Assembly: GCA_010356995.1 (NCBI GenBank) | Contig: ML996695.1 | Span: 939,061 to 1,003,060 of the forward strand | From: Trichodelitschia bisporula | Taxonomy: Eukaryota | DNA length: 64,000 bases | Direction of reading: 5' to 3' | Shown: positions 57,996 through 63,582 of the stretch, in pieces | Layout of the letters: each line of letters begins with the position of its first letter | How positions within the stretch are numbered: position 1 is the first letter of the stretch | Made by a program: the position numbers and the translations under genes | The notes under the pieces: model-generated | The model's input: only the letters and a program-made list of their open reading frames with translations | Told to the model about the DNA's origin: nothing | Databases searched by the model: none

Positions 57996-58564
57996 GTGAA
58001 GAGGAAGAAAAGTCTTTCGATCAGTTAGCGGCGGTGTCGAGTCAAGCGACAGTGACGCGCATCCGCTTCGTTCTCCGCACACACAGCTGCGACTTTCTGC
58101 GCCAGAGCCCGAAGCCCAAGCTCCCCCCCCCCCCCAAGCAACTCACCCCAGCTTGACCAACAAAATCCACCCAACCACACCACACCCGTCGCCTTCTTCT
58201 CGTTCTCTTTCTCATCATCCCCAAGATCAACAACCCGAACCACCTGCGTCTTCATCAACACAACCGCGACCGTCGCATCTGCTTCGCGCCTCATCATTGT
58301 CGCGGTACCTGCCTTTCAACGCCACGATACCGTCCATCAGCCATTGACCTTCAATTCCCCATCATCGCCGCCGCATCTGCTTCGACGAACGCGAACGAGT
58401 CTTTTTCTCAAATGTACGTACAGCAGCCCAATCACTCAGCCCAAGTTCCTGCTGCAGAGGCGACCCATCTCGCCCTGCACATGCAAGCTTGGGCTTTTTC
58501 TTTCACTCGTCCCCCACCCTCTCTAACCGCCAGGGTGCTGGCGCATCCTCTCTCTTGCTGTCAA

Positions 58565-58696
58565 TCTCTCTCTCTCACACACTCTCTCTCTCTCTCTCTT
58601 GCTCGCTCTCTCGCGCGCGTTCTCTCTCTCTGCGCTGTTCTCCGCCTCATCTCTTGCAATCCTTCGAACACTTCAGCCCCCCCCCCCCCCCCCCCG
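58565..58696 (+). repeat. Interrupted CT/CA microsatellite followed by a poly-C run (58677-58696)
   Basis: Read directly. Further poly-C runs occur at about 58123-58135 and 59770-59780. Confidence 0.85.
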
Positions 58697-59898
58697 ACAC
58701 CCCGCTACTCCGACCCGCCGCGCGACGCATCCTCCCTCCTCCGCCTCGCACCAGTGCGACGCGCTCGCCCGACCCGAGACCCCACGCGACGCTTCAACGG
58801 ACTCTGGTAGCGCATGCAGCCGTGCCTTAGTCTGCATCAGGCGCCTGCTGTTGGCATCATCGTGCACTGGGCTGCCCCGCTGCCTGCCTGCTGAGCAAGA
58901 AGGGAAGAGCTGGCCGCACCGCGCCGTCGCGTGTCATCATCCTGCCTGTTGCTTGCCTGGCTGTGCTCGCTGAGCCTAGTCCCGGAAGCACCGCCCTGGA
59001 AGCTGTAACGTGGCCTTGTCCGCCAGTTCAATCGTCCCTTCGCGGTGGTGGTGCGGATGTCGGGATGTGGTGGCCTTCCTCTCTGAATTGAGAGAGAACA
59101 CTCGCGCCATACCGGATAGCGAAGTGAGTTGCGAGAGAAAAGAGAGAGTGAGCGCAACGCGTGTGAGAGAAAGCAGAAGCGAAAGAAAGAGAGAAAGGGA
59201 GACGAGAGAAAACGGTATGCAAGAGAGAATAGAGGCACTCTTAAAGCGTTTCTTCCCACGGCCCAATTGCGAGGTACATTGCGAGAAGTAACCGTTTCAG
59301 CAGCTCCCGCACATCTCGCGAGGTACACACAGGTAGCACCGCCATTATACCCACCACCGCCTTTTTTTTCCCGCCTGTCCTCCTGTACACCCCTCCACCC
59401 CCACCCCGCCCCAACGCACCACGCAGAGTACGCCATCTTTCGATCCTTCACCGACCTATCGCACTACCCGTCTCACGCAATTCCTACAACCTCTCACATT
59501 TTTCGCCTCCCGCAAATCCTCCCCGCCCGACCAGCAACAGCTTCTCTCTCCCCGCCGACGTGGGACCAACAAGAACCTCACATAAACATTCCCTGAACCG
59601 GATTGCAGGACTTGCAGCTTAGCTGCAGCACGCTTCTACCTTCCAACGCCCCAGTTGCACAAGCCATCCGTGCTGTGCCTTCCGCCATTGCCTACTCCGT
59701 CTTCCTAGTGTTCCCCACCTCCCCCCTCCCCTCCTAAGCCGCAGCTCCCCCACCCCATTCCAACCTCCCACCCCCCCCCCAGTCACGGCCGCAGCCTGTG
59801 ACGTGTATTGCCAGCGCAGGTCAATTTTGCATACCCGGGGCCAACACAGAGGCGGGCAGCGGTAGGCCGTGCGCCTACTGCACGGGGCCGAAATAAAC

Positions 59899-61324
59899 AT
59901 GTCGTCCTCCCCGACGACGAAGAAGGGGGCGGACGGAGAAGTAGTACCATCGGCAGACAGTGAGCAAGGAGGAATGAACGATTCTCACGAAGCACAAGGA
60001 CACGAAGTTGAGGTCAAGGAACAGGACAGATGGCTTCCCATCGCCAATGGTTAGTTCTCAAATGCGCCCCTTTCTGCAATCTCGTCCCCATTTTTTCTCA
60101 TTCCTTTGAACTTTGTGAGGGGGACAAGCAGAGAGAGAAACGTATGCACATGCCACAGCGAAGGCTGCGGTTTCGTACCTGTCGTTCTCCTGCCTGTCGT
60201 TTCCTCTCCCCTCCCCCCCTCACCTTCATTCCCACCAACCACTTTCTTGCTTTCCCTTCCTCAAATCACACGCCTGGCGTTGGCTAGCAGCCGCTTGCTG
60301 CTTGTCCGCCCTGGTCGTTCATTGTTCCCCTACCCCACTCACATCCCCGTTGCTCCACCCCCGCACATCTGCAGAGCATAGCAAAAGCAAAACAGAAAAC
60401 GGCGGGCTTGCATACGGCGACGCCATGTCTGCGTCGCCGCCTTCGCGGCCGCCGTCATCGCTTGCTTCACCTGTGCAGCATGCTCGGTCTGCGTCAGGGA
60501 AGAGCGTATCGTCAAACAATGGACACGGTCACGGTTGCAACTCGGACGCTAACATACGCAACTTTGCTCCAGTCGCGCGCATCATGAAGTCGGCGTTGCC
60601 CGAGAACGCGAAGATTGCGAAGGAGGCAAAGGAATGCATGCAGGAGTGCGTGTCGGAGTTCATCTCGTTTATCACGAGCGAGGGTGAGTGTCGCTGTCTC
60701 AGTGTTTGTGCGCACAAGGCTGAAGGCTTCTCGTAGCATCGGAGAAATGCCAGCAGGAAAAGCGCAAGACGGTCAACGGCGAGGATATACTCTTTGCCAT
60801 GACTTCACTTGGCTTCGAGAACTACTCGGAGGCTTTGAAGATCTACTTGGCGCGGTACAGAGAGGTAAGCATCCCTTATTTGACGTCTTGTCTTTTGTGC
60901 CCTCTTTTCCCCCGTTTCCCCTTATCCCATCCTCATCGCTTGAAAGACAAGTTACTGAACTATCGGTACTGATTGGATCCACGAGACCCTCCTCGCAACT
61001 CAGAAATCCGCCGCAACCGGCGCTGGGAGCACCGGCAGCACCGGGCCCGGCGGGTCCAACAGCGGGGCCGTCGGGGGCCCAGGGGCCGCAGGCGGTGCCG
61101 AACACGAGCCCGCTGGCAATGCCACCTCCGCTGCCGCCGCAGCCGCTGCCGCAGCAGCTTCCGCCGCCGCCGCAGGGCCCGCAGCTGGGCTACCTGCGTA
61201 CGGGCGCGGGGCACCACCACCACCTGGCGCACCAGAACACGCCGGCGACGCGCTACTGACGCACGCCGGCGAGGGTTTTGCGGGGTATGCGGTGCACAAT
61301 GGGAACGGCGCCGGGGAGTATTAG
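59899..61324 (+). CDS. HAP3: CCAAT-binding complex subunit Hap3/HapC (NF-YB)
   Basis: Introns 60050-60572, 60684-60736 and 60865-60985 give [70 protein letters not shown], then an Ala/Gly-rich tail ending HNGNGAGEY*. Confidence 0.95.
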
Positions 61325-62071
61325 GCGTGAATGGGGGGGTTGGGTTTGGCTTGTTTGAGTGTTTTCGTTGTTGTGCATGTGGACTTTTTTGCTTTTGCGG
61401 GGAAGATGGCGAGGGAGGACTGCGGGGACCGTGTGGGGGAGATGATGTGGTGGGTGTAATAGATTGTGTTTGTGGTATGGATCTGGGATGGATATGTGCG
61501 GTGGTAGTGCGAAGGGCAGGGGCAGAGGAGACGCAGGCGTGTAGATTGCGTGCTTTGCAACAGCCGTCGCTCGCTTGGGGAGGTCAATTGATGCTTTATT
61601 GTTTGCTCCTGCGCCGTGCTTTGCTGTATTCAGTGACTCGCGAGGCTGAGATCGGCAGACCGAGTGAGGGGCGCTCGTGACTTCGGGCCTCTTTCGGCTC
61701 GGTCCGTAGAGAGAACCCTGGCCCGACCTGGCCTGGCTGTGCCGCACCGCAACCCCGACACGCTCACGCCCCCGCTCCCCTGACCAAATCGCCATTCATG
61801 CGCCGCCTGATGACGACTTGTGCGACGCGGGCGCAAGCGAGATCGACACGCGGCTCTGACGTCTGCGATCCGATCCTTCAAGGGTGAGGCTGGGCTTGGC
61901 GCCGACGACGTGCCGACTCGGCTCTGTCACAACTCCGCTTCACGGGAAACCACATGGCAAGAAAGAAAGCGTAGATACCAGGCGCCAATTCTCCTATCCT
62001 AACTGCGCCAAAATAAAGGCCTCACAATCCCTGTCCCTCAACCCCACACAAGCCGTACAAACCACCCCCGA

Positions 62072-63582
62072 CTAAGTTTGACTCTTCACCATCCCGATCT
62101 TGAACACCGGACTCTCCATCGCCTTCTCCCAATCATGCAACATGTGCGTATTCGCTATGCTAAGCCTGACCTCCTCCCCGGCTCTCGCTCTCATCTCCCC
62201 TTCCCAAACCCCAACCTCCTTCCCTAACCCCTCCCCCGCCCTCTCTCCCCATCCTTTTACTATAGCCCCGACTAACCCCGCCGCGTCCGCCATGCTGTGA
62301 TTCAGCCCCTGCCCGCGCTGGTAGGTCATAACGTGCGCCGCATCCCCCGCGAGCGTGACCCGGCCCCCCGAGTCCCAGGTGTGTCCCTCGGCGCCGGGAT
62401 CCCATTCTGCCATCCCTACGGCCCAGACGCGCGCATCTTCGGGTAAATTCGCAAACGCCGTGCGCCAGGGCTCGGCGAAGGGCGCCTCACCTGCAAGTTT
62501 CTGCGCTTCAGAAGCGAGAATCTTGGGGTCGGTTGGTGCGGGCGCGTCGACGTGGAGGTTCGTGGTTGGCAGGGTTGGGCGGGAGATGTAGAAGAAGAAG
62601 AGCCAGGAGGATGGATCTTCGGGATCGGCGATGTGCTGCGCGCCTAGGAAGGAGAAGTATCCGCCTGGATGGACGCCGGCTAGATAGAGTGGGTGGGCTT
62701 CGCGGAGCTTCAGGGCGATGGGGGCGGGGAAGGAGGCTTGCGCGAAGGTTGCGGTTATGGGGAGATGGTTTAGTGAGGCCTTTTCGGCGCCTAGGAGGAG
62801 GGAGCGGACGGTGGAGCGCGGGCCGTCTGCGCCGATTATTAGGCGGGCGGAGGCGGAGGTGCCGTTTGTGAAGTGTGCGGTGCTGAAGGAGCGGTCCGGG
62901 GAGTGGGATATGTGGCTCAGTTGGTGGGAGAAGTGGATTGGGATATCGGTCGCGAGGAGCGTGCGCAGGGCGCGGCGGCGGAGGCGGTAGAAGTAAGGTA
63001 TGTTCATTGCGGTGAGCGGGGTGCCGGTTTCGGCGTTGAGGAAGGTGAGGGTGTCGAGGGGTTTCGTCGGGGTGTGAGGGTCGACTTGCGTGGTTTGGAG
63101 AAGGGAGATGATTGAGTCCGGGAGGAGGGATTGCAGGTGTGGCATGCCCCAGTGGAGACCCATGTTCCAGTCTCGCGGGTGGTGGGTTAGGGACGGGTGC
63201 TTTTCGTAGATGGTTACGGGGACGTTGGCCTGGTGGTTGTGTTGTTAGTTGGGGAGGGTGGAGAGGGCGAGGCTGAACGTACCTTCTTCAAGCCCTGCGC
63301 GATCGCGAGGCCCGTTGCACCTATACTCGTTAACACGGCGCAAAAGTCACACAGAGGGACTCTCAACCCACCAGCTCCAATAATGATAACCCTGTCCATG
63401 TCCGCACCTTCATTCTCGTCTACCCTCTCCGCGCCCGCCCCCTCACTCGACTCCCCACTCTCCCTCACCTCCCCTGCCGGCTGCCCCTTCGCCGCCTCCG
63501 CTGCTCCCTCCCTTTGCTTCGCTCGTGATTTCCCGCCGCCGAATAAGCCCATAACCGCATCAAACATGTCGCAGAACACCAT
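62072..63582 (-). CDS. FAD-dependent monooxygenase (salicylate hydroxylase-like group A)
   Basis: Introns 63321-63371 and 63230-63282 give VIIIGAGATGLAIAQGLKK, YEK, RDWNMGLHW, IGADGPRSTVR, VTLAGDAAHVMTYQRGQGLNH. Start codon uncertain. Confidence 0.88.

Follow-up and report, generated by a model that had tools for sequence, protein, structure and literature searches.

The hapC (HAP3) gene in the window, the whole 64,000-nucleotide (nt) stretch of Trichodelitschia bisporula contig ML996695.1 analysed here, appears to carry a second N-terminus inside an intron. The last 147 nt of its first coding-region intron (hereafter intron 1), counted from an ATG, are in frame with exon 2, and, judged by its codons in orthologous loci, this intron-encoded segment is under selection at the amino-acid level and has a conserved start codon of its own. 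We consider it very probable that the segment is translated. The gene is of the fungal type and spans 59899-61324 (PF00808; best PDB match Aspergillus nidulans HapC, 4G91 chain B).

An intronic reading frame with its own start codon

The gccATG at 60425 opens 49 stop-free codons that run into VARIMK of exon 2 (stop-to-stop frame 60119-60736), giving exactly the peptide quoted in the first-pass annotation of this DNA, and the CT-rich tract which that annotation placed ahead of the ATG is there too, as a C-rich region at 60200-60399 with a GC skew of -0.52. Across the loci surveyed below, an in-frame ATG with no intervening stop lies 30 to 63 codons upstream in 66 of 67 evaluable cases, the sole exception being L057; the same test gave 21/67 in the second frame and 0/68 in the third, the latter because the branch point closes that frame trivially. 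The context of the intronic ATG looks like that of a genuine start, with a purine at -3 in 52/67 loci, C at -1 in 51/67 and a second codon of the form xCx (Ser, Pro or Ala) in 66/67. An open frame by itself is weak evidence, since the second frame is also open for at least 30 codons in 58/67 loci; what goes beyond chance, on this comparison, is the codon pattern together with the conserved ATG.

Protein-level selection on the intron end

A protein search with the junction region returned 205 matches, of which 120 were listed; this query is biased and its results were used for names and range only. DANI(R/Q)NFAP precedes VARIMK in all 120 matches listed of the 205, so the database models with the intronic peptide that the first-pass annotation had mentioned do exist, and the named carriers among them belong to the Dothideomycetes, Leotiomycetes, Lecanoromycetes, Chaetothyriomycetidae and Xylariaceae. 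Because of the bias, we also scanned metagenome contigs with a pattern confined to exon 2, which gave at least 116 loci (14 transcript-like and 102 genomic), with wide flanks for 80. The window was added, and four loci with fewer than 90 nt upstream and 20 near-duplicates were removed, leaving 79 non-redundant genomic loci which share descent, so that counts among them are not counts of independent events. The intron end reads as codons of the 13-letter peptide pattern in 68 of the 79 (window included); six of the remainder have a different open frame ending in GNxxL and five have none.

Within the 68 peptide-bearing loci the codons change freely and the residues hardly at all. Ile is encoded by ATT, ATA and ATC in 31, 20 and 17 loci, Asn by AAC and AAT in 50 and 18, Ala by all four of its codons and Asp by both; the Arg position uses all six Arg codons in 61 loci (Gln in four, His in two, Gly in one), and the Phe position is divided 59/8 between the Phe codons with a single Leu. 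Codons are fixed as nucleotides only at the branch point and the acceptor (GCT in 66/68, CCA in 68/68). Over the five codons between these two signals the ratio of replacement to synonymous change (pN/pS) is 0.044, with synonymous sites saturated (pS 0.75 vs pN 0.03), and readings in shifted frames give ratios of 3.0 and 9.7. As the 68 loci had been picked by their peptide, the ratio was also computed over all 79 (0.219); in 39 strictly dereplicated loci it is 0.036. For comparison, exon 2 outside the search pattern gives 0.048 and the same positions in intron 2 give 0.914, and the upstream tail (codons -20 to -11) gives 0.88 when computed without gap alignment. Upstream of the motif the sequence is thus free and its length ranges from 30 to 63 codons. 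The codon-level constraint for which the first-pass annotation had proposed a test upstream of the acceptor is therefore present, and conservation is not, as it had allowed, confined to branch-point and acceptor nucleotides, the codons between them varying synonymously and hardly in residue.

The predicted alternative protein

From VARIMK on, the histone-fold sequence, including alpha2 to alphaC, is identical in both forms. The likeness of the alternative form to canonical HapC/Hap3/NF-YB covers PF00808 positions 6-65 and extends to the PDB chain alignment (4G91 chain B), whereas both the entire acidic tail and PF00808 positions 1-5 are exchanged. Where alpha1 starts, RNFAP stands in place of the conserved LPIAN segment of the canonical form, with Asn for the conserved Pro ahead of the helix, Phe for Ile, Pro for the Asn within the first helical turn, and Ala unchanged. 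Scores against PF00808 are 54.3 bits for the partial form in the window, 89.9 for a full alternative protein (P0035) and 99.7 for a canonical one (P0273; cut-off 21.4). Structure prediction was weak, with a mean predicted local distance difference test (pLDDT) score of 45 from the single sequence and 50 with a 20-sequence alignment, in which the alternative segment stays below 50 and helices fall at 34-42, 51-79, 87-96 and 100-121; these models are too weak to decide the matter. The part of Hap3 that serves DNA binding is presumably the very segment that is swapped here.

A short Hap3 segment is needed for DNA binding according to a passage of PMC6652802 (citing Xing 1993), and passages of PMC7266990 assign base recognition to HapB and binding of the DNA backbone to HapC and HapE. 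HapX contacts alphaC of HapC (bioRxiv 2021.07.15.452465), and alphaC is kept in the alternative form. The HapE mutation P88L and the alternative HapC both alter the L0/alpha1 boundary of a histone-fold subunit; with P88L the trimer still forms, DNA bending is abolished and affinity is altered (same passages of PMC7266990). P88L is, however, a clinical point mutation in the partner subunit, whereas the alternative HapC is a naturally conserved second N-terminus. From this anatomy and the P88L case we infer that the short HapC would dimerise but bind DNA differently, as the first-pass annotation had proposed.

Two Hap3-type subunits used alternatively are described in PMC6652802 for Candida albicans (Hap31/Hap32) and for plants (NF-YB paralogues); those are separate genes, whereas the two forms of HapC would be products of a single gene, distinguished only where the fold begins. 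The alpha and beta forms of Trichoderma Xlr2, an example of fungal transcription-factor isoforms with and without DNA binding, likewise arise from one gene giving a long and a short mRNA, and they differ in the DNA-binding part (PMC11121469). Xlr2 nevertheless loses a whole domain and is reported for a single genus, whereas hapC would swap nine residues in five classes and, unlike Xlr2, encodes the swap over the branch point and acceptor.

Probable expression of the alternative form

Splicing was examined in assembled contigs from two runs (X1 and X2) of one sample, whose RNA nature is guessed and in which the contig tool cannot separate RNA from DNA. In both runs 60048 is joined to 60572 across 523 nt with GT..AG ends, and all three coding-region introns and an 890-nt intron in the 5' untranslated region (5'-UTR) are joined likewise, which makes the 523-nt stretch a real intron that is normally removed. 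The intron of the first-pass annotation is thereby borne out, though not its label of intron 1 in the sense of the transcript, whose first intron is the upstream 5'-UTR intron. The donor GTTAGT lies at 60050, the branch point GCTAAC at 60548-60553 and the acceptor CAG at 60570-60572. Introns 2 and 3 of this gene measure 53 and 121 nt, and in orthologous loci intron 1 has a median of 323 nt (184-556, n=52) and intron 2 of 62 nt (n=65).

The alternative form is probably expressed from a promoter within intron 1, to judge from the sequence around its ATG. ATG triplets are rarer than expected in the last 80 nt before the intronic start (28 vs 53) and are not depleted at -200 to -120 (65 vs 46.5 expected); this confinement to the last 80 nt, as in a short 5' leader, favours an internal start. 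Leaky scanning is unlikely, because the main hapC ATG has A at -3 in 52/52 loci. Among matches found only in Logan, the alternative start is joined to spliced exons 2-4 in 3/33 and the other 30 run into intron 2; as the gene caller is not known, the three joins are only a hint of a processed mRNA. A second leader contig of hapC (58714-59333) starts within the 890-nt UTR intron, after a CT-repeat tract, and is a possible precedent for an intronic start in this gene. Between the internal promoter and the intron retention that the first-pass annotation had left side by side, the promoter, itself predicted from sequence, fits better, and retention fares poorly for the reasons weighed below.

Near-CCAAT elements in the intron

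The commonest heptamers between the donor and the intronic ATG in 51 whole introns are CCAGTCA, CAAATCA and CGAATCA (22, 23 and 23 loci, against 1.0-1.5 expected for each from shuffles), at least one of which occurs in 45/51 loci and each of which is one base off CCAATCA. Among the 16,384 possible one-mismatch neighbourhoods that of CCAATCA ranks first, with 106 matches against 24.7 expected, and remains first in the 39 strict loci, as opposed to rank 2030-10103 in three control regions; the density of such elements upstream of the intronic ATG is 9.4 per kb, compared with 1.6-3.9 in five control regions. All three heptamers recur in at least three assigned classes each, and the window has near-CCAAT heptamers at 60235, 60262 (CAAATCA) and 60335. 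Perfect CCAATCA is absent among the 106 matches, so the sites do not match the CCAATVR consensus, and this absence is not below background (0 seen vs about 1 expected). PMC7144946 states CCAATVR to be the consensus of the CCAAT-binding complex (CBC), and a passage of it reports CCAGT and CGAAT cores as measured lower-affinity CBC sites, the CAAAT core not being among the weaker sites in that passage.

The elements occur in both orientations (45 plus, 61 minus), and complementary heptamers stand together in only 5 and 2 of 51 loci, with mutual pairing predicted in 3/51; given both orientations and such rare pairing, they look like DNA sites. An RNA stem formed by the heptamers was rejected as a general explanation on the pairing count.

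Two further observations concern these words. In 34 kb of sequence from related loci, taken 300-1500 nt ahead of the main start codon, perfect CCAATCA (14) and CCAATGA (16) are the commonest members of the neighbourhood, which matches the HapC chromatin immunoprecipitation (ChIP) peak upstream of A. fumigatus hapC. In L078, about 25-45 nt past the intron-1 donor, a perfect palindrome of 18 nt is made up of two CAAATCA elements.

Proposed mechanism and alternative explanations

On balance we favour a chain in which a promoter within the intron, responsive to the CCAAT complex, drives a short, dimerising HapC that acts as a feedback damper. Under this model hapC would make two proteins, the major mRNA joining exon 1 to exon 2 and encoding canonical HapC, and a second mRNA would start within the intron, roughly 80-250 nt before the intronic ATG. 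The short form would exchange the acidic tail and the ten residues at the end of exon 1 for a Ser/Pro-rich tail ending in ten residues encoded by the intron. The weak one-mismatch CCAAT boxes of the intronic promoter would be occupied by the complex only when it is abundant or aided by a partner. The short HapC would keep the surfaces for HapE, HapB and HapX and lose the proline-capped start of alpha1 that normally grips the DNA backbone; complexes containing it would show weak or altered DNA binding or bending and would dampen the normal complex, as a built-in feedback modulator.

Several observations weigh against this model. No intronic transcription start was seen in the assembled contigs, which cannot show starts, and the canonical form is the one found in 14/14 transcript-like metagenome contigs. 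The intron-covering contig of X1 (60020-60601) crosses the unspliced donor, which points to retention, pre-mRNA or DNA rather than an internal start. A TATA-like word is present in only 8/51 loci, the window carries just one of the three common heptamers, and all the counts come from loci related by descent. The CAAATCA/TGATTCG element keeps a tight distance to the donor (19-49 nt in 21/23), carries a conserved CGCG flank that another factor might use, and is kept in the Aspergillus-like loci L021 and L103, which are without the open reading frame (ORF). In HapC ChIP from A. fumigatus the listed hapC peaks lie 768-786 bp upstream and none within the gene, in a species that apparently is without the intronic ORF. 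Finally, merely losing DNA binding would not require as many as nine near-invariant residues, which may point to a specific contact.

That last point leads to a different function for the same protein, a gain-of-function subunit in which the NFAP start of alpha1 shifts sequence preference, perhaps in favour of one-mismatch boxes, or recruits another partner, so that a second CCAAT-type complex would serve targets of its own. Its attraction lies in D, I, N, F and A being near-invariant beyond splice needs at exon-level strength, in the hydrophobic positions being kept (Ile to Phe, Ala unchanged, in the alignment to 4G91 chain B), in the enrichment of imperfect boxes with none perfect, and in the account of PMC6652802, citing Xing 1993, that a short Hap3 segment contributes to DNA binding. 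We nevertheless think it unlikely, as base recognition falls to HapB and HapC/HapE sit on the backbone (PMC7266990) and the absence of perfect boxes is not below background. Equally doubtful is its fullest version, in which most filamentous ascomycetes form two CCAAT-type complexes from one hapC, the second preferring CCAGT/CGAAT/CAAAT or another partner, driving its own intronic promoter and serving a separate regulon, a layer that Aspergillus and Penicillium would have lost and for which one lineage would have swapped in a basic N-terminus.

The other explanations concern the route to the protein, or its existence. We regard as improbable a route by regulated intron retention in transcripts of the normal promoter, with the intronic ATG used through re-initiation or internal initiation. 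Contigs do cover the intron (all of it and the unspliced donor in X1, at a mean word depth of 21 vs 414-480 on the exons; most of it in X2, at 11 vs 172-175), the exon 1 frame is soon stopped (within three codons in 16/51 loci, at once in the window) and one conserved element hugs the donor; yet these contigs come from one sample with RNA and DNA inseparable, the main ATG has a strong context and a 50-60 codon upstream frame, extra ATGs lie between the donor and the alternative ATG in 46/51 loci, and the motifs occur in both orientations. Far less probable still is an upstream alternative acceptor through which the intronic peptide would be added in frame behind a retained exon 1, the way in which 11 of the 120 listed database models are built. 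A stop-free in-frame YAG precedes the ATG in 22/51 loci (60393-60395 in the window), but an in-frame acceptor with a CTRAY branch point occurs in 0/51 whole introns, and one in any frame in just 6/51; intron lengths are spread evenly modulo 3 (17/14/20), a joint of this kind appears neither in the window contigs nor in the surveyed loci, and the conserved ATG would be left unexplained. Models with an upstream acceptor or with in-frame retention were rejected from the survey of the 51 whole introns. We give as little credit to the view that no protein is made and the conservation reflects splice signals or RNA structure, which the codon data already largely refute. Three of the nine codons do overlap the branch point and acceptor and are fixed as nucleotides, the 5' part of the intron in the window folds at z -2.4, and some heptamers are mutually complementary. 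Against this, synonymous sites are saturated and replacement sites are not, shifted frames give ratios of 3-10, no Rfam family was found (best match 18.8 bits vs a cut-off of 60, E 4), and complementary heptamers rarely co-occur or pair.

Distribution across the fungi

By likeness to named proteins (at least 60% identity), 44 of the 68 loci could be assigned: 15 to the Dothideomycetes, 12 to the Sordariomycetes, 9 to the Leotiomycetes, 5 to the Lecanoromycetes, 2 to the Chaetothyriomycetidae and 1 to Thermoascus-like Eurotiales. On these assignments the selected segment occurs in five classes of Pezizomycotina (Dothideo-, Leotio-, Sordario-, Lecanoro- and Eurotiomycetes). An assignment from summed tblastn scores was discarded, low-complexity matches having dominated it. 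The closest named relative of exon 1 in the window is from Venturia, at only 49% identity, and the window was accordingly placed in no class.

The segment was likely lost in the Aspergillaceae (Aspergillus/Penicillium), the group in which the complex was crystallised, as two loci and three models suggest. In L021, whose exon 1 is 85-87% identical to Aspergillus/Penicillium proteins, the frame is shut five codons upstream, as it is in the similar L103, and models of A. fumigatus, A. wentii and A. recurvatus that read through the intron end (P0211, P0157 and P0162) have other residues there. Such a loss would explain why the feature was missed.

The six GNxxL loci (L043, L065, L008, L045, L004 and L108, with the protein P0244) have an open frame with an ATG and a different peptide, which occupies the last 40-55 codons of intron 1 and contains two basic clusters. 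These clusters we take to resemble a bipartite nuclear localisation signal. Among three close members of this lineage, synonymous and replacement codon changes are about equal (7/7, 10/9 and 10/8).

Gene structure and neighbouring features

The features of hapC are collected below.

Features of the hapC locus, in positions of the window
Feature	Position	Strand	Basis
5'-UTR intron of hapC, 890 nt	58414-59303	+	contig joint
First coding exon, canonical, 50 codons, ending in the ten-residue segment that the alternative form replaces	59899-60049	+	sequence and contigs
First coding-region intron, 523 nt, GT..AG	60050-60572	+	sequence and contigs
Candidate internal promoter and 5' leader, ATG-free for 274 nt, pyrimidine-rich; promoter role inferred	60151-60424	+	sequence
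Alternative start codon, gccATGtct	60425-60427	+	in-frame ATG conserved in 66/67 loci
Ser/Pro-rich tail of the alternative N-terminus, 40 codons in this gene; variable in sequence, with the frame preserved	60425-60544	+	
DANIRNFAP codons, which lie over branch point (60548-60553) and acceptor and substitute for QDRWLPIAN position by position	60545-60571	+	
Exon 2, common to both forms: remainder of helix alpha1, then L1 and alpha2 of the histone fold	60573-60683	+	
Exon 3, common to both forms: end of alpha2, alpha3, alphaC	60737-60864	+	
Exon 4, coding part; Ala/Gly-rich C-terminus	60986-61324	+	

Within the 5'-UTR intron there is a perfect CCAATCA at 58428. The inner hapC leader contains four upstream ATGs (58814, 59057, 59065 and 59217) and the spliced leader none. 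Intron 3 (60865-60985) apparently closes with the uncommon acceptor GAG (60983-60985). At 60124-60148 a CAG is followed 10 nt on by a donor-like GTATGC, a possible micro-exon with no supporting joint in the contigs. An apparent extra small intron lies within exon 1, directly before VKEQDRW, in three Leotiomycete-like loci (L037, L060 and L061). Contig cover is absent at 61624-61925 and in introns 2 and 3, and was not used as evidence. The convergent neighbour at 62072-63244 (minus strand) encodes a protein resembling FAD-binding monooxygenases (PF01494).

Significance

A description of this isoform was not found in the literature searched, the scope of which excluded subscription journals and bioRxiv supplements, and a query with the peptide gave no match. 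Alternative first exons are a known kind of arrangement, and the peptide sits unrecognised in databases: among the 120 listed matches are 15 spliced models without exon 1 (12 from NCBI and three from Logan) and 11 that carry the peptide as an insertion. A second form of HapC would explain the wrong or hybrid N-terminus of many database models. The segment is also a clean example of coding sequence under strong selection that overlaps both branch point and acceptor.

Respiration, sterol genes, the azole response and, together with HapX, iron homeostasis are under the control of the CCAAT-binding complex, which has been treated as having a single HapC. The conservation described here points to a second HapC, as yet unstudied, in many filamentous fungi. 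If so, work in those fungi with hapC deletions, C-terminal tags or cDNA complementation would confound two proteins, and the second HapC would constitute an unrecognised layer of control across five classes, apparently missing in the Aspergillus models.
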